From Vicinamibacteria bacterium (GTDB lineage: Bacteria > Acidobacteriota > Vicinamibacteria > Marinacidobacterales > Marinacidobacteraceae), in the NCBI GenBank assembly GCA_963422395.1, contig OY729431.1, forward strand, positions 1,984,001 to 2,048,000: a stretch of 64,000 nt of DNA. Direction: 5' to 3'. Within the stretch, counting starts at the first letter, position 1. Each line of letters begins with the position of its first letter. Positions 1 through 10,993 of the stretch are shown piece after piece. The position numbers and the translations under genes are program-made. The notes below the pieces were generated by a model. That model was given only the letters and a program-made list of their open reading frames with translations, ran no database searches and was not told the origin of the DNA.

Positions 1-1799
1 TCGTGATGCCAGCCCGGGCGGAGACGCACCAGCTCGCGGTAGAGCTCGATGCAGATGCGCCGGCTCATGCAGACCACCATCGCCTTGCCGTCCATCGCTT
101 CCCGGCGCTGCTCGAAGTGCTCGACGATGTCCCGGGCGATGCAGGCGAGGCGCCGCGAGGCGCCGACGACCGCTTCGAGCTGAGCCCACTTCCTCTTGAG
201 CTTCTCCTGGCGCTCGACCTCCTCGCCCTCGGTCGCTTCCTCGAAGCCGGAGTCGAGGTTGGGCCGCTCGCGCTCGTCGAGCGCCAGTCGGGCGAGTCGG
301 CTCTCGTAGTAGATCGGTACCGTCGCGCCGTCCTCGACCGCCCGCTGGATGTCGTAGATGCTGATGTGGTCGCCGAACACCGCGCGGGTGCTGGCGTCGG
401 CCCGCTCGATCGGCGTTCCGGTGAAGCCGACGAACGAGGCGTTGGGGAGGGCGTCACGCAGGTGCCCGGCATAGCCGGCGATGAAGTCGTACTGGCTGCG
501 GTGTGCTTCGTCGGCGATCACCACGATGTTGTGCCGGTTCGACAACAGCGGATGCCGGTCTCCCTTCTCCTCGGAGAAGAACTTCTGGATGGTGGTGAAC
601 ACCACGCCTCCCGACCCGACGGCGAGCTTCCTCCGCAGGTCCGTGCGGCTCGCCGCCTGGACCGGGGACTGGTGCAGCAGGTCGGTGCAGCGCGAGAAGG
701 TGGAGAAGAGCTGGTCGTCGAGGTCATTGCGGTCGGTCAGCACGACGACGGTCGGGTTCTCCATCGCTGGCTCGCAGACGATGCGTCCAGCGTAGAACGC
801 CATCGTCAGGCTCTTGCCCGAGCCCTGGGTGTGCCAGACGACGCCGATACGCCGGTCGCCCGGCTCGCCGCCCGGCTGGCGGCCGGTTTCGTAGCGCCCG
901 CGCGGCTCGCGCACCCCATCGAAGTCCTCCCGCTGCAGTCGGGCCGCGCGCAAGGTTTCGGCGACCGCCCTCTCCACCGCGTGGAACTGGTGGTAGCCCG
1001 CCGCCTTCTTGACGAGCGCACCGCTCCCGTCGTCCTCGAACACGAGGAAACCGCGGAGGAACCGGAGGAATCGGCGCTTCTCGAAGACCCCCTCGATGAG
1101 TACCCGGATTCCCGGGTAGAAGGTGGGCGCCAATTCCTCGCCGGAGATCGTCCGCCAGGGTTTGAACCATTCCCTCCCGGCGTTCAGCGTGCCGAGCCGC
1201 GCCTCCGAACCGTCCGAGACGGCCAGCACCGCATTGCAGGCGAACAGCGACGGAATCTCCGCCTGGTAGGTCTGCAGCTGCTGGAAGGCCGACTCGATCG
1301 TCGCCTTCTCGTCCGCGGGATTCTTCAGCTCGATCACCCCGAGCGGCAGGCCGTTGACGAACAACACGATGTCGGGCCGGCGCCGGTGCCGGTTCTCGAC
1401 GACGGTGAACTGGTTCACCGCCAGCCAGTCGTTGCCGGAGGGATCCTCGAAGTCGATCGCCCGAACCTGCTTGCCCCGGACCGCGCCGCGGTCGTCCCGG
1501 TACTCCACCGCCACCCCGTCCACCAGCATCCGGTGGGAAGCTCGGTTACGGGCCGCGAGCGTCGCGCCTTCTGGGCGGGTCAGCTTGCGGAAGGCGTCTT
1601 CGAGAGTCTCGGCGGGCAGCTCGGGATTCAGCCGCGCCAGCGCACCACTGAGGATCGGCGCAAAGAAAGCATCCTCGCGAGATGCGCGCAGGGCGCCCGG
1701 TCCCGGCGGCAGGTCCGGCCCGCTGACGACATCGTAGTCCAACCCACGAAACCAATCGAGAGCGGCCTCCTCGACGACCGACTCCGATATTCCGGCCAT
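1..1799 (-). CDS. hsdR: Type I restriction enzyme R subunit (3' end beyond window)
   Basis: Not in the ORF track; hand translation from ATG 1799 gives [17 protein letters not shown]...[22 protein letters not shown]...QQLQTY (HsdR nuclease), [12 protein letters not shown] (Walker A), [11 protein letters not shown] and GFTGTP. Confidence 0.95.
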
Positions 1800-1803
1800 G
1801 CAC

Positions 1804-2499
1804 TCATCCCCTTTCCTGCTGCGTTTCGTGCTGCGGTGGCAAATCTTCGAGGCGTTGCATCCAGCCATCGAAGTGGCGGCACTCGGCCCGCATGCGCGGA
1901 ATGCCTATGCGTCCGGAGATGTCGGCGCCGTGTAGCACCTTGCGATATCTCGGGGTCAGGTGCTTCAAGCGAGCCGAGGGGTGCGTGGTGCTGCCCTCGT
2001 TGACATGCTCCGGACTCTTGGCCGACTGTCTTGCCGCCGCGAGCTGTCCGGCGAACTTGCGCCAGGAAGGTTCGGCTTCCTCGAATCTCGAAATCTCCGA
2101 GAACAGCAGAGATTCGAACTCGCAGGGTTGGATGTGAGGAAAAAATCGGTCGGAGCGGCACTCGGCCTTTTGAACGACTTCCGCATGGAAAACGCTTTCG
2201 ATACTCGCCGCACGTTCGATCGGATCGGAATTCGTTGCCTTCGAGTGCCCGGGGAAGTTTCGAGGAAGCCCGTACAGATCGAAGAAAGTCGTCACATAAG
2301 TATCCTTTCGTTCCCGCAAGGTATTGCGAAGAAAGTGAAATACCCGTTGGTGGTTGAGCGCCCCGCCCTTTGCAACGCGAGAGGTGGCGATGAGTCGGGG
2401 CTGGACGAACACCTGCCGATCTGCCAGGAAGGGGCCGAGCACCCTATTCGTGAAGGTCTCCTCGGTCTGGCCTTCGCAGACGATCACGATTTCCTTCAT
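1804..2499 (-). CDS. DUF4276-family TOPRIM-like protein
   Basis: N-terminal [17 protein letters not shown] and EFESLLFS motifs; directly downstream of an ABC-type ATPase. Confidence 0.8.
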
Positions 2500-2509
2500 C
2501 CTTCTGGCC

Positions 2510-3601
2510 TCACTCTTCTGGCCTGCCGCCGAGTATGTTCATCTTCCACAGATCACCCAGCGAATACTCGGCCAGCCAGTCGGTCAGACGATCGGGGTCC
2601 AGCCGCTCGAAAACCGACTCTCCGTTTTTCCGGTTGACGACCAGGACCTCTTCCGGCGTCAGTTGGCTGACGAGCTCCGCCGACTGGGTCGAGACGATGA
2701 CCTGTCGCGCGTCGCTGGCATGGCGGAGCATTTCGGCGAGCAGGGTGAGAGCGTAGGGGTGCAGGCCCAGCTCCGGCTCGTCGATGAGGATCAAGTCGGG
2801 CTGCAGCTGCGTCGGCTGGAGAAGCAGGGTCGCCAGGCAGAGGAACCGGAGCGTCCCGTCCGAAAGCTGGCGAGGCCCGAACACGGTGTCCGAGTCGTTT
2901 GCATGGTGCCATTCGAGATCCAGTCGTTCCCCCACCCTCTCGCGATAGAGGAAGTCGCCGAAGAACGGCGCGGTCAGCCGGATCGCCTCGACGATCTGGC
3001 GAAAATGGTCGCCGTGATGCTCGCGCAACCGACGCAGGAACGGCGCGAGATTGCCCGCGTCGGGCTTGAGCCGGAGGTCGTCGCGCAGGGCCTGCTTCCT
3101 GCGCACTCGCGCCTCGGCGCTGGTGTCGTGGAAGTGGTACACCCGCCAGCCGGCGATGGCCTTGCGCACATAGGGTGCAAAAGTGTCCTTCCCCTCCTCG
3201 TCCATATCCCTGAGATTCGACTCGTCGTGGCCGCTGCCCAGGGAGTGGGAAAAATCTCCATGGTCGCCGAAGAACTGCGTCTCCTCCTTCTCGAACACGA
3301 GGCGGTCCCCGGTCGGCACGAGGGAAAAGCGGTAGGCATTCCTGTCGAATACGAACTCGGCATCGATACGGTCGGTCCGCTTCCTGCCGCCGAACAACAA
3401 TGCATCCGGTCCGTCCTGTTCAGCGGCGAAGAGTTGCAGGCGCCGGTCTGCCGCGCAGGACAACATGCGGAACAGGTCGATGAAGTTGGTCTTGCCGGCG
3501 CCGTTGGGGCCGATCAGGACATTCAGCGACCCCGGTTCGAAGTCTTCCAGCGCGCGGATCGACTTGAAGCCGCGAACGGCAAGGCGGTCTAGCCGAGGCA
3601 T
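2510..3601 (-). CDS. AAA_21/SMC-like ABC-type ATPase
   Basis: RGFKSI, Walker A GPNGAGKTN, signature LSDGT, Walker B LILIDEPELGLHP, STQS; likely start MPRLDRL at 3601. Confidence 0.9.
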   Translation of the reverse strand: MPRLDRLAVRGFKSIRALEDFEPGSLNVLIGPNGAGKTNFIDLFRMLSCAADRRLQLFAAEQDGPDALLFGGRKRTDRIDAEFVFDRNAYRFSLVPTGDRLVFEKEETQFFGDHGDFSHSLGSGHDESNLRDMDEEGKDTFAPYVRKAIAGWRVYHFHDTSAEARVRRKQALRDDLRLKPDAGNLAPFLRRLREHHGDHFRQIVEAIRLTAPFFGDFLYRERVGERLDLEWHHANDSDTVFGPRQLSDGTLRFLCLATLLLQPTQLQPDLILIDEPELGLHPYALTLLAEMLRHASDARQVIVSTQSAELVSQLTPEEVLVVNRKNGESVFERLDPDRLTDWLAEYSLGDLWKMNILGGRPEE

Positions 3602-3627
3602 GGAGCTCGCAAGACAGCGTAGGCGGT

Positions 3628-4770
3628 TCAGTCGCCTCGCGACTCCGGTTCGTCGTCGCAAATGACTTCGATCAGGCGCGGATTCAGCAGCCTCCACCGC
3701 TGCTTCATGCGCTCCAGGTCGCCCTTCAGCACGACCAGCGCCCGGTCGTGGTGGGCCTTAACTGCTCTTCGATAGTCCCGTTGCTCCAGAACCGCCGCAA
3801 CCGATTGTCGTCGTCCATCGATGACTGCCGTCATATGGATCGTTCCTTCGTCGTCCGCCTCCCCGCGCTTCAGGAGGCGAACGAAGCCGTGGAGACTCAC
3901 ATCCGGCCGCGGCGCGCGATCGCGGAAAGAGCGCGCCGCTTCGCGCAGCAGAGCTGCATCCGAACTGCCGAACCGAACGATGTGTCCCGGCACTTTCCCT
4001 GTCACCGGTCGTGTTCGAGCCCACGAAACGCCGATGTCCAGCGTCGGAAACGGTTCGATGAGCCGGACCAATGCCTCACACAGATTGGCGCTCACCCCGT
4101 CGTCCACTGCCGCCTCGAAGGAGCCTGTCTCACCGGCAGCCGCGCGTTCTGCCGCCCCACGGACCGCGGTGAGCGCCTCGACCAGCCGCCTCGTCATTCG
4201 GCGTTCGATCGGGGCATTCTGATCGTCCGGATCGGGAAAAAGCGTCGGGATCGGCGGCGGAACGACCGGCGTCAGCAGTGTCACCACGAAGCTCCCCTGC
4301 TCGGTCTGTCCCAAGCGTACCTTTCGCAACAGATCCGCCGCCTCCCGGTTCGCGCCCGCGCGATAGACCGGCCGCGGGTCGTGGAGTGAACACGCCGCCG
4401 AAAGCAGCAGGTCGTGGGCACCGCCGATGAGGTCCAAGCCGTCGTTCAACATCACGCTGCCGTCGTCGCTCTCTGTCGCTCGGACGCGGACGATGTCGCG
4501 GTCCACAGTCACGAGCGATCGATAGACGGTCAACTCGTCCTGACCGGCTACTTTCGCGAAAGTTTCGATCAACGCCGCCACGACGCTCGCGTAGTCGCCG
4601 AGGCGCTCCGTGCGCGGGACGAGGATCTCCGGCCGCTCCTCTCCTGCATAGACATCCGAGTGCACCCGGTACGGCTCCTGTCGGCTCCATCCAGCGGCAC
4701 GAGCGTACGCGGACAACGCCGCCGGCGAAACGGCCAGCAGCGCATCCAGGTCGTGAATGCTCACTCGCAT
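3628..4770 (-). CDS. Conserved hypothetical protein, partner of DUF4365-like gene
   Basis: 380-aa ORF with globular composition; start overlaps the upstream stop by 1 nt; possible C-terminal OB-like beta domain. Confidence 0.7.
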   Translation of the reverse strand: MRVSIHDLDALLAVSPAALSAYARAAGWSRQEPYRVHSDVYAGEERPEILVPRTERLGDYASVVAALIETFAKVAGQDELTVYRSLVTVDRDIVRVRATESDDGSVMLNDGLDLIGGAHDLLLSAACSLHDPRPVYRAGANREAADLLRKVRLGQTEQGSFVVTLLTPVVPPPIPTLFPDPDDQNAPIERRMTRRLVEALTAVRGAAERAAAGETGSFEAAVDDGVSANLCEALVRLIEPFPTLDIGVSWARTRPVTGKVPGHIVRFGSSDAALLREAARSFRDRAPRPDVSLHGFVRLLKRGEADDEGTIHMTAVIDGRRQSVAAVLEQRDYRRAVKAHHDRALVVLKGDLERMKQRWRLLNPRLIEVICDDEPESRGD

Positions 4771-5081
4771 CAGATTTCCCCCTTCCGGGACTTCTGCATG
4801 AGTTTTCGTAACGCCTCGATGTCGAAAATATTCTGTTCCGGAAGGCGAACCGTGACGGTCTTCCGTCCGATGACTTCGTCGTGCCCCTGCTGTAGGTTCA
4901 GCCAGTAGGCAAGGCGCCGCAGAACGAGTTCTTCGGCGGTCACAGTCGAAACGACATCCACCGCGACTCGCCTTCCTTCTGGCAACTCGAGGACCACGAG
5001 TGCGCGTGTCGCCACGGCCCTGGCGTAGACGAGGGACAATCCCTCCTTCTGGTCCGGATCGGTGAGCAGCGTGTCCGTCAT
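4770..5081 (-). pseudogene. DUF4365-like protein with apparent in-frame internal deletion
   Basis: N-terminus DQKEGLSLVYARAVA and C-terminus LVVLELP...LVLRRLAYWLNL...TVTVRLPEQNIFD resemble DUF4365; only 103 aa and no central D..D/QLK nuclease core. Confidence 0.6.
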
Positions 5082-5181
5082 GAGATAGCTCCGATCAGAT
5101 TCCTAGCGTCTCACACCCGCAGCTCGTCGGACTCCAGCTTCGGCAGCAGCGCATCGTGCCAGGCGGTGGGATTTCGCCGCC

Positions 5182-6921
5182 TCACAGTTCGAATGGCTGG
5201 TATTCCACCAACGTGGACCGACCGATGAGGTCGACGATGGTTACCGAAAATTCGGCACCGAACGCGTCGGTGAGCCTCATCGCTTTGCCCAGTCGAAAAG
5301 AGACCGGCTGCTGCCGTCCCTCGTCGATGGCGATATTGTCTGCGTACAGATAAGTCCGGTCCGAAGTATCCCGTTTAGGATTCAACCGCCCGCGCAGGCC
5401 GGGAATATGTCCGGCGCCCTGGGAGAAGATAGCCGCACCTCCCTTCGGGAGAGGACGGAGCTCCATGAGAAGCCCTCCTCCGTCCGGTCTCCACCCCCGT
5501 TCGATCCCCGCAGAATATCCAGGCGCCGCGGCGTAAACGGTCATCGGTAGATGCGCCGTGTACAGACCGAGAGCGGCTTCGCCAGCTTCATCGGTCGTCG
5601 CCCGCTGCCAGGTATCGTTCGGGAAGAGTGCCAGAACTTCCACTTCTGGTAGAGGCACTCCCTCCGAGTGCACCGTGACCGTCGCAGTGGAAGGAATCCT
5701 TTGGAGTTTTGCCGCCGGTATGCTCAAGATCAAGCTGGATTCATCCAACATCTCATATTTCGGCAGGATACCGGCAGTTTTTCTGGTCTTCTCCAGGATG
5801 ATCGAGACGCCGTCGCCCCGTCGTTCCATCAGGTAACGGCGGTGGGTCGATCCGGGGACTCCGCCAACGGGAATTCGTCCGAACACGGAAGCGATCACCT
5901 CGTTGCGTGTCGCCTGGCTGGCACCCATGCTTTCTATGGTCATGCCGTTGGGAAGCTGGCCGGGCGATTCGATCTCGAGGCGGTCATCGAACATCGACAA
6001 CCGGATACGACGCGATTCCATGGAGTAGTCGCGGTGGACGACTGCGTTGACCACCGCTTCGAAAACCGCGGCGATGCTGTACTGCGGTACATCCTCCCGT
6101 TCTGGCAGCTTGCGTGCCGCAACGCGCATGTTTCGAACGACGAACTTCACCGCGTCGGCGATCTGGACTGGAAGCGGTCCGACGATTTCCTGGTCGTCCA
6201 ACTGTTCGGAAGTACGGGTTCTTCCCCGGTAACACTTCGCGAAGATGGCGGCTTGCGGGATCCATTCCTGCGGCGATCGGGCACAGAGCAATACGCCGGC
6301 TCTCGTGGCTCGATCCACACCGGTTTCCTCATGCGCCAAAAGGCGAAGATTCTTCAACCCCCGGCGAGGGTCCGCCGCGCCCGCCACGCTGAGGAGCGGC
6401 TCCCACAGACTCTCGTCGAGCGTCTCGAAGCCCGTCTCCGGAACGACTTGCCTGTCGTACCACAGGAAACGGCTCTGCGCTCGGTTCTGTGCCAGCCTCA
6501 GGCGCTCGTCGCCGTCGAGGCGGCGCTTGGTCGCACCTACCCGGAGGAAAGCGCGCCCGGCCCGCTCGTGAACAGTGCCGCCTCGCGGGATTTCGACGAG
6601 CAGGAAAGCCTCGCCGTCGAGTTCTCGATGGTGGACCTCGATTCGCAGAGAAGGATGGATCGTATCGGTAGCGATCTCCACCAGCAGTCGGTCGAGTGCT
6701 GTCAGCTGTTCCCGAGACATCCCTCGAATCCGCCCATCGTCGGATACCCCGCACAGGAGGAAGCCGCCGCTTCCGTTGGCGAAAGCTCCCATCTCATCGG
6801 CGAGATCGCCTCTTGCGGGGCTGGTCGGGATATCGCCCCTGAATTCGATCTGCTCGAATTCCCAGCGGCTGTCCTCACCCAACCGCATCTGCCGTCGGAT
6901 GACCTCGTCGCGGACCGTCAT
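5182..6921 (-). CDS. Schlafen/AlbA_2 + HATPase_c_4 (RecG-C-like) protein with C-terminal beta-sandwich extension
   Basis: GEDSRWEF, AFANGSGG.LLCGVSDDG (AlbA_2); EAVVNAVVHRDY, DRLEIESPG, RNEVIA, ERRGDG (HATPase_c_4). Confidence 0.85.
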   Translation of the reverse strand: MTVRDEVIRRQMRLGEDSRWEFEQIEFRGDIPTSPARGDLADEMGAFANGSGGFLLCGVSDDGRIRGMSREQLTALDRLLVEIATDTIHPSLRIEVHHRELDGEAFLLVEIPRGGTVHERAGRAFLRVGATKRRLDGDERLRLAQNRAQSRFLWYDRQVVPETGFETLDESLWEPLLSVAGAADPRRGLKNLRLLAHEETGVDRATRAGVLLCARSPQEWIPQAAIFAKCYRGRTRTSEQLDDQEIVGPLPVQIADAVKFVVRNMRVAARKLPEREDVPQYSIAAVFEAVVNAVVHRDYSMESRRIRLSMFDDRLEIESPGQLPNGMTIESMGASQATRNEVIASVFGRIPVGGVPGSTHRRYLMERRGDGVSIILEKTRKTAGILPKYEMLDESSLILSIPAAKLQRIPSTATVTVHSEGVPLPEVEVLALFPNDTWQRATTDEAGEAALGLYTAHLPMTVYAAAPGYSAGIERGWRPDGGGLLMELRPLPKGGAAIFSQGAGHIPGLRGRLNPKRDTSDRTYLYADNIAIDEGRQQPVSFRLGKAMRLTDAFGAEFSVTIVDLIGRSTLVEYQPFEL

Positions 6922-6982: not shown

Positions 6983-8865
6983 TCACGCAAAGGTATCGAC
7001 GACCTTCTCGGCCTCATGCACCCGCAGCTCGCCAGAAATCAGCTTCGGCAGCAGGGTGTCGCGCAGGGCAGAGAGAGTGTGACTTGTCAATTCGTTGGTA
7101 ACTTGACGCTCCAACAATTTTCCGAACAGACCGGATATCTGAACGAGTAATCGATCAGAAGGAACGACACACAAGGCATCCGTCAGGTGATGTCGTCTGA
7201 TATGTCCCATCGTTGTCGCTTTGTCTTTGGCAATTCGTTGAAATTCTTGAAAATGTGACAAAATACTATGCAAATAAAACCACTTGGAATATTTATTCGA
7301 TGTCACCTTGAATAGATGTTGATTCAAAGCTGCTCTCCCACCGCACCATATTCGAACCAAAAGACTGCCTGACCAAGAAAACACGATATCGCCGTTCTCG
7401 ATAATGCATTTTGGATTTATGTTCGCTCTTGCCCATTCTCCGCTATTTGTTTCACCAGCTCGTAGTTGAGATATCTTGACTACGGGCAAGCGTTCCTCAT
7501 GCTGCGACGGAGAAAATTTCTGAAGGGAAAGTCCGTTCTGAAAGAAGGCGATCGAATCAAGCGCCCTCACCGTCCAGCCTTCCGGTATCTCGCCCAACTC
7601 GGAGTCCACCAGCGGTCGGGGAAGAGGGCGGCGAGGTGCGGCGGCAGACCGGTATCGCGGCCCTGCATCTTCGCCCGCACCGGGTCGAAGGCGACGAACC
7701 AGGACTGGAACAGCGCCCGGGCCATCGCCTCCAGCGTCTCGTTCATCCGCCGGTTCCGCTCGATCTTGTCGTCGAGCGTCCCGAGGACGTGCGCAATGGC
7801 GCAGCGTTCCGACTGCGGAGGCCATGGCAGGGAGAGCGATTCCAAGTCCTTCCTGGTGGCGTTTCCGAAGACTGAACCGCTATCCTCCAGTACGTTCCAG
7901 GACGACTCCATGTGTCGAAGGCAGAACTCGAGATATCGAGTGTCGGATCGAACGAATGGCTTGATGATCGCTAATCCACGACCAGCAGCGCATTCCAGGT
8001 CGGCAATGTTCACTCGACCAATTGGCGCACGTACGCTGAAAAGAATCTCCCCAGGTCGTGCTACACGAGAAGGTGCCGAGCAGAACACTCTAGGCGACGG
8101 GTGGCGATAGTTGAAGTCCTTGACTCCCTGAAAGAACGGCAGCCCATTGCCGTCGCCGTTGTAAGTCGAACCTGGTGGGGACTGTCCCATGACCAGTTCG
8201 GCGATATCCCGTAGACGTTTCCGCCTGCGATCCGTCGTCGAACTTCGTTCAACTTTCGTCCCTAGCACCACGTAGTCGCGCTCGATCTCCCGCTGAAACC
8301 GCTTCGGCAGGCGCACCCAGTCGCGGGCTTCGACGAGGAAGGGGATGTTCGACTCGCGCACGGCCTCCTCGAAATCGCCTACCTGACCGATCGGGATTTC
8401 TTCCAGGCCCGGACCGCGCAGCACGAGGTCGAGATCGCTGCCGTCGTGGCTTCGCCCGTTCACCCGGCTGCCGTAGGCCCAGACTGCGACACCCGGCAGG
8501 TGCTCCCGCAGCAGCGTTTCCAGTACCCGTCGGTGGTTGGCGGCGAGATGGAGCCGATCAGCCGGCAACTGTACCCGCTGCTCCGTCACGATACGCCTGA
8601 ATCGTTCGCCGATTCGCCTGACGTCCACGATGTCCACAGCGAAGGGAAGATCCGAATCCTCGAACGCCGCTTCCATCGCAAACAGGTGCTGTTCCGCGAT
8701 GCTGGTATCTCCCTCCAGAGCGAGATCGAGGTCGGACGAATCTTTCGTCATCCAGTTGGCGCGGCTCCCGAAGACCCAGACCCTGACGCCGCCCGGCAGA
8801 TGCCGATGCAACACGTCCTGGACGATGCGCAGGTGATCGGCGCGGATGTCAATCGGCGGCGTCAA
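6983..8865 (-). CDS. hsdS: MNT-MNT-HsdS fusion (type I specificity subunit with two N-terminal nucleotidyltransferase domains), frameshifted near 7612
   Basis: From TTG 8865: two GSx10DxD MNT domains, TRD1 (MGQSPPG...FSVRAPIG), then conserved region LDDKIERNRRMNETLEAMARALFQSWFV..LFPDR; the frame then shifts to LVDSELGEIPEGW, TRD2 and LRDTLLPKLISGEL. Confidence 0.85.
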
Positions 8866-9289
8866 GGGATTCGTTCCTCTGATGCAGCTGATCCCGGAGA
8901 TATCTGGCCTCACCGACGAAGTCCGGGACGATCTCGAAGACCACCCGCGCCTTGTCTCCGTCGTAGGTGTGGCTGGTTGTGCTCCGGTGCTTACGGTACT
9001 CCTTCCAGATGGACAACTCGGACCGCACCAATCCCCGCCGGAAGGCTTCACGCATGATGGCGCTGAAGCTCATTTCATCGAACTGGGCCGGATTCTCGGA
9101 GACTTGTTCCAGATGGCGCTTGACCATCTTGAATGACAATTCGTAGGTGAACTCGAAGGCTTGGATTGCGGCAGCTCTGAGGTGCAGCTTGAGAGCGGGG
9201 TAGCGTGACGCGATGTCCGAGCCGTGGTACTCCAGAGCTCCCTCCAACTGGGCGAGCGCATCATCGAGCGGCGTCAGGTCGAGTCTCAT
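8849..9289 (-). CDS. HEPN protein (HI0074-like nucleotidyltransferase substrate-binding/toxin subunit)
   Basis: [15 protein letters not shown]...[13 protein letters not shown]...RSTTSHTY (RX4HXY); ATGA overlap with the hsdM stop. Confidence 0.9.
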
Positions 9290-10959
9290 GACCCGTGCCT
9301 CCGCGACACGAACCCCAGCGTCTTCAGATTGTCGGCGATGGCCGCATCGAGCCGCGCGCCTTCCGCCTGCTGCTCGCGCAGTTGCGCGACCAGCCGCTTC
9401 ATCTTGTCTTCGAAGGGCTCGCCGTCCTCCTCCCGGGGTGCGGCGCCCACATAGCGGCCCGGAGTGAGCACATGGTGGTGCTTGCGGACTTCTTCCAGCG
9501 GCGCGCTCCGGCAGAAGCCGGGCAGATCCGCGTATTCGCCCGCACCCTCCCCGCCCCGCCAGGCGTGGTAGGTGCCGGCGATGCGGGCGATGTCCTCGTC
9601 GGTCAGCTCCCGGTGCGTGCGGTCCACCATCCGGCCCAGCTTGCGGGCGTCGAGGAACAGGATTCCGCTCCGCCGATCGCGTAACTTTCCGCCTTCCCGG
9701 CCCCGCGTCAGGAACCACAGGCAGGCCGGGATCTGGGTCGAGTAGAAGAGCTGGCCCGGCAGGGCCACCATGCAGTCCACCAGGCCCGCCTCGATCAGGT
9801 TCTTCCGGATCGCCCCCTCGCCCGACTGGGCCGACGACATCGAGCCGTTGGCGAGCACGAAGCCCGCCGCGCCCCCCGGCGCCAGATGGTGGAGCAGGTG
9901 CTGCACCCAGGCGAAGTTGGCGTTGCCCTTCGGCGGGACTCCGTACCGCCAGCGCCGGTCGTCGGCGAGCCGCTCCCCGCCCCAATCGGACACATTGAAC
10001 GGCGGATTAGCGAGGATGAAATCGGCCTTCAGGTCCGGGTGGCGGTCGTCGTGGAAGCTATCGCCGTGGGCGATACCGCCGCTCTCGATGCCTCGGATGG
10101 CCAGATTCATCTTGGCCAGCCGCCAGGTCGTGTAGTTGGACTCCTGGCCCCAGATCGAGAGGTCGCCCTTCGCCCTCCCGCCGTTGCCGTTGCCGGTAGC
10201 GTGTGCCCGGATGAAGTCCATCGACTGCACGAACATCCCCGCCGAGCCGCAGCAGGGGTCGTACACCCGGCCCCGGTACGGCGCCAGCATCTCGACCAGC
10301 AGCCGGACCACCGAGCGCGGAGTGTAGAACTCACCGCCCTTCTTCCCCTCTGCGCTCGCGAACTGCGAAAGGAAGTATTCGTACACCCGGCCCAGTACAT
10401 CCCGGGAACGGGCCTCCGCGTCGCCCACCCGGAGATCGCCGATCCGGTCGATGAGCTGGCCGAGCCGCTGCTTGTCGAGCGCCGGCCGGGCGTAGTCCTT
10501 CGGCAGGACATCCCCGAGCACCGGGTTGTCGCGCTCGACCGCCGCCATCGCGTCGTCGACGACCTGCCCGATGGTGGGCTGCCGCGCCTGCGCCTGCAGG
10601 CGGTTCCAGCGAGCTTCGGGCGGCACCCAGAAGATGTTCTCGGCGGTGTACTCGTCGCGGTCCTCGGCGGCCTCCGCACCCAGTTCGGCGAGCACTGCCT
10701 CCTGGCGCTCTTCGAAAGCGTCCGAGATGTACTTGAGGAAGATCAGCCCGAGGACGACATGCTTGTACTCGGCGGCGTCCATCGAGCCGCGCAGCGCATC
10801 GGCCATCGCCCACAGCTCGGTCTCGTGTCCGGTCGCGGCGCCCTGGACGGTCGCCGCACTCCTAGCGGCCGTCGTGGCGGCGCTGCTGCCTTTGCCGTTC
10901 GACCCCGACCCTGGCGCCCTACCGCCGGATCGCTGTTTCCTCAGCCTTCCTCGGGCCAT
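9286..10959 (-). CDS. hsdM: Type I R-M DNA methyltransferase subunit M
   Basis: [48 protein letters not shown]; start uncertain (10959 or 10986). Confidence 0.96.
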
Positions 10960-10993
10960 GATGCATCCCCCCTTCCGGCCGAACACTCGCTCG

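Follow-up and report, generated by a model that had tools for sequence, protein, structure and literature searches.

A predicted type VII antitoxin fused to the specificity subunit HsdS in a type I restriction-modification operon

The 64,000-nucleotide stretch analyzed here (the window; contig OY729431.1 of the Vicinamibacteria bacterium assembly GCA_963422395.1, positions 1,984,001 to 2,048,000 of the forward strand, numbered from its first letter) carries a type I restriction-modification (R-M) operon in which a HEPN gene is followed by a single open reading frame (ORF) encoding two MNT nucleotidyltransferase domains and, in the same frame, the specificity subunit HsdS. The reading favored here, at a probability of roughly 0.55, is that a type VII toxin-antitoxin (TA) cassette has entered a complete type I R-M operon at the point where hsdM and hsdS are translationally coupled, tying the supply of the antitoxin to HsdS. 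The locus would then be a natural case of an antitoxin that is physically part of an R-M subunit, which bears on the triggers of type VII toxins and on the integration of TA and immune functions in phage defense.

Architecture of the HEPN and MNT-HsdS genes

All of the relevant genes are encoded on the minus strand, in the order hsdM, HEPN, and the ORF comprising MNT-A, MNT-B and HsdS. The gene for the methyltransferase subunit, hsdM, occupies 9286..10986 (these are the limits of the ORF, and the true start probably lies further in), and its product carries both the N6_Mtase and HsdM_N domains expected of a type I R-M system (PF02384, E 1.9e-103; PF12161, E 1.1e-27; PADLOC MTase_I, E 1.5e-215). 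As described in the initial annotation of this DNA, the TGA of hsdM overlaps the ATG of the HEPN gene (8849..9289) in an ATGA at 9289-9286, and the HEPN product contains the sequence RSTTSHTY. This 146-residue protein belongs to the HI0074 or NTase_sub_bind family (PF08780, 101.8 bits against a cut-off of 31.8; TIGR01987 (HI0074), 79.8 bits against a cut-off of 55.8), and its best match among solved structures is HI0074 itself (PDB 1JOG, E 4e-24).

RSTTSHTY is an instance of the RX4HXY motif, and a second motif, IQAFEF, corresponds to the Q..E metal site of the homologue from Legionella pneumophila. Alignment of 25 relatives of this HEPN type (HEPN-A) revealed that Glu-46 (in QAFEF), Arg-102, His-107 and Tyr-109 are invariant and that Gln-43 is at least 90% conserved. 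RX4HXY is retained in 38 of 41 HEPNs at loci where MNT is fused to HsdS and in 31 of 35 at loci where MNT is free. Conservation of both motifs, together with retention of RX4HXY at fused loci, leads us to infer that HEPN and MNT of the window form a working type VII TA system of the HI0074/HI0073 branch.

The ORF that follows the HEPN gene is open without a stop from 9051 to 7569, the assembled stop lying at 7567. Its likely start is a TTG at 8865, 17 nt ahead of the HEPN stop, such that the HEPN and MNT genes adjoin and overlap by 17 nt; the same start is found in P0001, a protein database entry for the same 432-residue product. Profile searches detected Polbeta (E 3.7e-13) and NTP_transf_2 (E 1.1e-10), each in two stretches, followed by Methylase_S (38.9 bits; cut-off 22), and these matches support the earlier description of a HEPN/MNT module lying within a type I R-M operon, its MNT part translationally fused to HsdS. 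MNT-A (8569..8865), the N terminus of the fusion, matches HI0073 (PDB 1NO5, E 2.8e-12), and MNT-B (8254..8568), which adjoins HsdS, is 83% identical to the MNT of locus L002. The G-S...D-L-D residues are intact in both domains, and each shows the GSX10DXD pattern with an acidic residue further downstream. The same reading frame continues through a linker, the first target-recognition domain (TRD1) of HsdS and its central conserved region (7614..8253; Methylase_S, 38.9 bits; PADLOC Specificity_I, E 4.9e-63).

The claim that two intact MNT domains run stop-free into HsdS was borne out by an independent contig: a short-read contig from sequencing run X2 aligned to 7758-9300 with 0 differences and 0 gaps, and the MNT-MNT-HsdS frame is therefore not an indel artefact. 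The initial annotation had also raised the alternative that HsdS is translated from an internal start of its own. No ATG, GTG or TTG is present in the window between 8268 and 8190, the region of the ancestral HsdS start, so that no ancestral start codon is kept; the sole candidates for independent initiation are GTG codons at 8271 and 8268, which lie inside the conserved end of MNT-B with a GGAG 16-19 nt upstream and remain weak. At the ancestral position of the HsdS initiator, Met was found in 3 of 26 aligned fused proteins (the first 26 of 45 fused domains followed by >250 residues, the other 19 being left out). As far as the architecture indicates, fusion would make antitoxin supply inseparable from HsdS synthesis.

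Recurrence of the fusion and origin of the two MNT domains

That the fusion might be unique to this assembly was a concern of the initial annotation, and it proved to recur widely, across several phyla and on a plasmid of a cultured strain. With the MNT-MNT portion as query, 1868 matches were obtained among 4941 candidate protein clusters of 237-756 residues, and 2400 among 2519 candidates of 30-236 residues, the latter being mostly free 108-residue MNTs at 80-87% identity. Of the best 120 long matches, 74 contain one MNT and 46, including the protein of the window itself, contain two; nearly all contain Methylase_S. In species-representative genomes, 36 loci from many phyla were recovered, of which 22 are arranged as hsdM-(HEPN)-MNT::hsdS and the other 14 consist of a free HEPN-MNT pair. 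A HEPN gene was identified at 32 of these 36 loci; at each of the 32 it lies upstream of MNT, with short overlaps. Among 400 genomes of one class, 45 contain a match, and by hand count 34 of the 62 matches lie in open frames of at least 500 residues.

A metagenome sample of HsdS loci was drawn via a double-MNT alignment whose patterns came from the HsdS conserved region. Thirteen of the 80 loci listed carry MNT, among them eight fused with an upstream HEPN, one fused without HEPN, and one (L110) in which MNT is embedded in the operon but unfused; HEPN without MNT was encountered at none of the 80. Once duplicates (L037, L049, L130-132 and L134) had been removed, 91 MNT domains remained, comprising 47 fused and 39 free domains, 2 first domains of double-MNT proteins, and 3 that were unclear. 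A tree of 90 MNT domains requires 14 switches from fused to free or back, of which no fewer than six are forced by well-supported branches; these counts are rough, the rows being related to one another and the domain short. Gain or loss of the fused arrangement has occurred six or more times, and this arrangement accounts for nearly half of the MNT-family clusters found.

A tractable natural example is provided by plasmid pZMOB01 of Zymomonas mobilis ATCC 10988, which carries hsdM, an HI0074-family gene, a gene for a 527-residue HsdS with N-terminal Polbeta/NTP_transf_2, and hsdR. The fusion is annotated there as a single RefSeq coding sequence (CDS) named "restriction endonuclease subunit S." Since pipelines give fusions merely this label, their TA content is hidden. 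The HsdS of the Z. mobilis ZM4 plasmid was not among the plasmid matches to the query, and the accessible text of an R-M deletion study in ZM4 mentions neither MNT nor HEPN and so provides no test of toxicity (PMC8432527).

Full-text literature searches returned no published account of an MNT-HsdS fusion; they did not extend to the figures and Additional file 1 of PMC3710099, whose Figure 5 legend defines "RM_TRD," so that a cartoon there may show something related. Embedded TA and HEPN genes in R-M operons are already known, and the MNT-HsdS fusion recurs in many bacteria and is apparently unstudied.

Genome G401 (loci L001, L006 and L011) yielded five matches to the MNT query, namely three MNT-A frames of 397-639 residues, one other fused frame of 586 residues and one free MNT-B, so that a single cell can harbor several such R-M cassettes. 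In metagenome locus L063 (2798-6590), hsdM and HEPN are followed by a free 151-residue MNT and, ∼1.5 kb on, by a second MNT that is fused to HsdS.

The two MNT domains of the window had been taken for a duplicated antitoxin. MNT-A and MNT-B are 39% identical (35/89) and fall into separate clades of the tree, which does not support this view; by their divergence they are of different lineages, with no recent duplication. The HEPN of the window shares 84-88% identity with those beside MNT-A::HsdS (L001, L003, L005-7 and L011) but only 31% with the one next to MNT-B::HsdS in L002 and 28-29% with the HEPNs of free MNT-B-like pairs. It is the single PF08780 gene of its genome, in which no second PF08780 gene and no further match to the MNT-A plus MNT-B query was found. 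Taken together, these identities and the single PF08780 gene mark MNT-A as the cognate antitoxin and leave MNT-B without a toxin of its own. A complex prediction for a HEPN dimer with MNT-B returned "no answer" (score 0.00) and weighs neither way. All 19 members of the MNT-A clade, which spans phyla, are fused.

Among 42 double-MNT::HsdS proteins, various types of first MNT are joined to various types of second, and the catalytic G, S, D and D residues are intact in the first MNT of all 42. By contrast, the second MNT is altered at one or more of these positions in 10 of the 42. The decay of displaced antitoxins is thus measurable (0/42 against 10/42), and the double forms point to domain accretion by serial TA replacement: an incoming HEPN-MNT cassette would displace the resident HEPN, and the resident MNT would remain and decay slowly because it already forms the start of hsdS. 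MNT-B of the window, in which the catalytic motif is still intact, fits the description of a relic of an older module whose HEPN was displaced.

Genomic contexts of double-MNT forms were examined for two cases, the window and L160, the metagenome sample having contributed no additional one. At L160, hsdM is followed by a stray fragment of MNT-C, a single HEPN-A (84% identical) and MNT-A-MNT-C::HsdS. The fragment, 102 residues long and MNT-C-like, lies between hsdM and HEPN-A (L160:5959-6267, minus strand) and looks like a scar of the recombination that imported the HEPN-A/MNT-A cassette. The two-MNT, one-HEPN form was rare among the sampled genomes: the window copy is its sole match in 401 genomes of its phylum, and one such match was found in 400 genomes of the class.

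Candidate mechanism and competing explanations

The nearest characterized pair is lpg2920/lpg2921 of L. pneumophila (PDB 8XDJ/8XEH), described in the accessible text of PMC11586414 as a type VII TA system in which the HEPN gene comes first, as in the window, and overlaps the MNT gene by 8 bp. According to that text, the MNT is short, lacks helix α-4 and poly-AMPylates Tyr-105 of RX4HXY, and the RNase activity of HEPN depends on a Mg2+ site (Gln-44/Glu-47) and not on Arg-98/His-103. The HEPN of the window is likewise HI0074-like, ∼140 residues long and equipped with QAFEF and RX4HXY (match E 4.3e-8), and its MNT domains are likewise short (∼105 residues), without α-4 and with GSX10DXD (match E 1.3e-5). 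Unlike the free-standing L. pneumophila pair, in which MNT is a separate monomer, the MNT of the window is the N terminus of HsdS in an R-M operon and is followed by a second MNT. HI0074/HI0073 of Haemophilus influenzae, which belong to the same NCBIfam and Pfam families and gave the best solved-structure matches cited above, differ in being a two-gene pair with no HsdS fusion and are known by their structures only.

The favored reading builds on what is directly observed, namely how the locus is built, that it recurs, which MNT is cognate to HEPN and that catalytic residues are lost from second but not first MNTs; toxicity, AMPylation and the effect of the tether are inferred. The toxin gene would be translated first, coupled to hsdM via the ATGA, and MNT-A next, via the 17-nt overlap. 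By analogy with the L. pneumophila homologue, MNT-A would keep HEPN harmless by AMPylating the tyrosine of RSTTSHTY. Because the antitoxin would be made solely as part of HsdS, its neutralizing action would depend on continued synthesis, and probably on the stability, of HsdS. The TA cassette and the R-M genes would be expressed, transferred and lost as one unit, and upon shut-off or loss of the operon, unmodified RNase would remain and growth would stop. The predicted outcome is addiction to, and thereby stabilization of, the R-M cassette, with a possible role as an abortive back-up. A more far-reaching proposal is put forward only tentatively: that these loci represent a class of type I R-M systems, widely distributed but so far undescribed, with a type VII antitoxin wired covalently to HsdS, in which HEPN would signal whether the R-M complex is being synthesized, assembled or inhibited, as an AMPylation-based guard or addiction device, and in which strings of MNT domains at the N terminus of HsdS would be fossils of one toxin replacement after another.

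Several observations weigh against the favored reading. No HEPN was found at fused loci L004, L008, L015 and L025 (among the 36 loci) nor at L116, and an MNT-HsdS fusion can therefore persist without a toxin. Nor is fusion obligatory, since unfused embedded forms exist: besides L110, these include L113, with a free 96-residue MNT between hsdM and hsdS and no HEPN found, and Acetobacter plasmids in which MNT is annotated as a separate CDS. The N-terminal MNT survives truncations of HsdS, as in this assembly, which weakens a simple "addiction to hsdS," and the catalytic losses in second MNTs (10/42) imply that an enzymatically dead MNT is tolerated as an extension of HsdS. In most of 67 non-MNT loci of the metagenome sample, the hsdM stop and hsdS start overlap, and given this coupling, fusing an inserted module in frame may simply be the least demanding way for translation of hsdS to continue. 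On the NCBIfam MntA_antitoxin equivalog model, the MNT protein of the window scores 54.9 bits, below the cut-off of 60 (a relative, P0004, reaches 60.7); that model was built on DUF86-type partners, and the window MNT is therefore placed in the HI0073 branch and not with the MntA equivalog. Evidence on the fused forms is, moreover, derived from sequence throughout.

One competing explanation takes the tether further and proposes a PrrC-like guard, in which HsdS-borne MNT would neutralize HEPN as long as M2S1 or R2M2S1 is intact, with anti-restriction proteins or loss of the complex releasing the RNase and causing abortive infection. The antitoxin is indeed located in the complex that anti-restriction proteins bind, within a defense island; 38 of 41 fused loci retain the toxin motif, hsdR is commonly there to complete the system, and the hsdM-HEPN-MNT::hsdS unit is 77-88% identical across phyla. 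There is also precedent in PrrC/EcoprrI and other R-M-linked HEPN clades, as set out in the accessible text of PMC3710099, where a HEPN RNase inside a type I R-M operon is likewise a toxin held in check by R-M proteins. PrrC is, however, an ABC ATPase-HEPN fusion that is silenced by binding the R-M complex, with no MNT, AMPylation or HsdS fusion. No ABC ATPase domain was detected in the 146-residue HEPN of the window, for which PF08780 is the sole domain match and which has no PADLOC match; it therefore stands outside the PrrC family, and the sensor domain of PrrC is absent from it. Furthermore, AMPylation is covalent and catalytic, and neutralization would thus need no tether; fused loci without HEPN and unfused embedded forms exist, and the link from the state of HsdS to the activity of MNT is drawn from architecture. 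The guard is considered unlikely.

At the other extreme, the tether could be neutral, a mobile HEPN-MNT cassette having hitch-hiked selfishly in the hsdM-hsdS junction, where it gains a promoter and co-transfer and becomes fused solely because hsdS lacks its own ribosome-binding site, the TA module itself functioning like an unfused pair. In favor of this, there are many closely related free forms (108-residue MNTs at 80-87% identity; free pairs at 14 of 36 loci), switches between fused and free states are frequent (14 changes), newly arriving cassettes supplant a resident HEPN whose MNT stays behind as a decaying relic, and hsdM and hsdS overlap in ordinary loci. Set against this, MNTs located between hsdM and hsdS are nearly always fused (47, compared with unfused L110 and L113 and 3 unclear cases), all 19 MNT-A clade members are fused whatever their phylum, and long forms make up nearly half of the clusters (1868 as against 2400). 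Neutral hitch-hiking is also regarded as unlikely. A role for MNT other than that of an antitoxin, such as nucleotidylation of an R-M subunit, DNA or a phage protein with HEPN as its substrate-binding subunit, revives the older view of HI0073/HI0074; it draws on the Pfam and NCBIfam name of the HEPN family ("nucleotidyltransferase substrate binding") and on the fused loci without HEPN. It is very improbable, however, as the nearest characterized pair consists of a toxin and an AMPylating antitoxin (in the accessible text of PMC11586414), the AMPylated tyrosine and the QAFEF site are conserved, and catalytic residues disappear from second MNTs whose HEPN has been lost, fitting a HEPN-directed function. 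Finally, an error of assembly or gene calling might be invoked for the fusion or the double MNT, because the same assembly has a 1-nt error or variant in hsdS (see below). This is scarcely credible in view of the independent gap-free contig over 7758-9300, the dozens of natural fused and double-MNT relatives, and the single RefSeq CDS in a cultured strain.

Other characterized systems share parts of this arrangement. In Shewanella HepT/MntA and Aphanizomenon HEPN/MNT, as in the proposed mechanism, an RX4HXY toxin is neutralized by tyrosine (oligo)AMPylation (accessible text of PMC11586414 and PMC4621449). These DUF86-type systems differ in having a PF01934 HEPN, a longer MNT with α-4, an antitoxin gene that usually comes first (accessible text of PMC3710099) and no link to HsdS. 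Precedents for genes embedded in R-M operons comprise PrrC and 16 HEPN clades (PMC3710099), PIN-like toxins (PMC5499597) and defense systems found through "guilt by embedding" (bioRxiv 10.1101/2024.01.29.577857), each as far as the accessible portion of the source goes. The embedded genes of the latter two are separate ORFs, and the accessible portions of both mention no antitoxin-HsdS fusion. Like such cassettes in hsdMSR operons, the window also nests HEC-01 and PDC-M02 between hsdS and hsdR.

Integrity of hsdS and neighboring genes

The initial annotation gave 7567 as the left limit of its finding, but HsdS is not intact as it stands in the window. As assembled, the fusion ORF ends at 7567, a premature stop, after TRD1 and the central conserved region, and the remainder of HsdS lies in another frame, in ORF 7825..6983. 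This remainder (6983..7612, minus strand) comprises TRD2 and the C-terminal conserved region (PADLOC Specificity_I, E 5e-60; Methylase_S, 21.4 bits, just under the cut-off of 22). Both TRDs and both conserved regions of HsdS are thus present, split in the window by a 1-nt gap at 7610..7613, where relatives read LFPDRLVDSELG, and intact in contigs from two other runs. Across the junction, the sequence in full-length relatives is LFPDRLVDSELGEIPEGW, and the window is therefore short of one base at ∼7610-7613. An extra base at this position is present in Logan contigs of two runs from two studies, at depths of 43/43 (X2) and 7.5/7.5 (X5). By hand reading, these contigs have GAC CGT CTG GTG and GAC CGC TTG GTG; both encode D-R-L-V, and D-R-L-V-D is restored. 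One of the two runs may be the source sample of the window assembly, so that their support is not fully independent. The break in hsdS reflects either a mistake in the assembly or consensus or a variant of the strain; the full protein of the organism is ∼627 residues long, consisting of MNT-A, MNT-B and a complete HsdS, and the true gene end is 6983.

Programmed frameshifting or phase variation at 7610-7613 is unlikely, as there is no homopolymer or simple repeat and two runs contain intact, slightly different versions. A recurrent half-HsdS was likewise dismissed: L005 and L011 owe their truncation to another deletion within TRD2, which they have in common, and L015 and L029 are split elsewhere. 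In the long-read metagenome-assembled loci L003 (3996-6017), L029 and L015, hsdM or hsdS is split by a frameshift, as in the window, and the hsdM frame of L003 runs on into HEPN; long-read assemblies of this kind may often carry indel errors in these genes.

The TRD2 part of the gene (6983-7560) has a G+C content of 41-44%, compared with 56-70% around it in a genome of 60-70% G+C, which suggests that TRD2 of the window is a recently imported target-recognition domain. The TRD2s of L013 and L024, from Pseudomonadota, are 49-53% identical to it. Across 7065-7612, 7629-7802 and 8302-8438, metagenome contigs show a 10- to 80-fold increase in depth at the central conserved region of HsdS and at part of MNT-B, and contigs join 7802 to 8392 or 8302, and ∼7065-7078 to ∼7566-7612, with other sequence between. 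These depth rises and joins indicate that other loci or strains share the conserved flanks with a different TRD1 or TRD2, and the 3′ end of MNT-B seems to serve as the upstream recombination flank for exchange of TRD1.

The restriction subunit gene hsdR (3..1868, minus strand; PADLOC REase_I, E 1.1e-174; ResIII) runs off the left end of the window and is part of a 1082-residue open frame in the genome; its presence completes the type I R-M operon. Among the 47 fused loci, hsdR was seen downstream in 22, a count to be read with the flank of just 1.5 kb at many of those without it. Between hsdS and hsdR sits a small defense island (1804..6921), assigned by domain and PADLOC scans and encoded entirely on the minus strand. 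It consists of a gene with SLFN/AlbA_2 and HATPase_c_4 domains (5182..6921), a 103-residue fragment of PDC-M02A (4770..5081), a full PDC-M02B (3628..4770), HEC-01A with an AAA_21 ABC ATPase domain (2510..3697), and HEC-01B (1804..2499).

Some relatives have additional sequence within HsdS itself. Four MNT::HsdS proteins (P0055, P0079, P0103 and P0118), with PF04480 and PF18741 in their precomputed annotation, contain an extra insert in the central conserved region, and a similar stretch was seen by eye in the translation of L015 (4244-5584).

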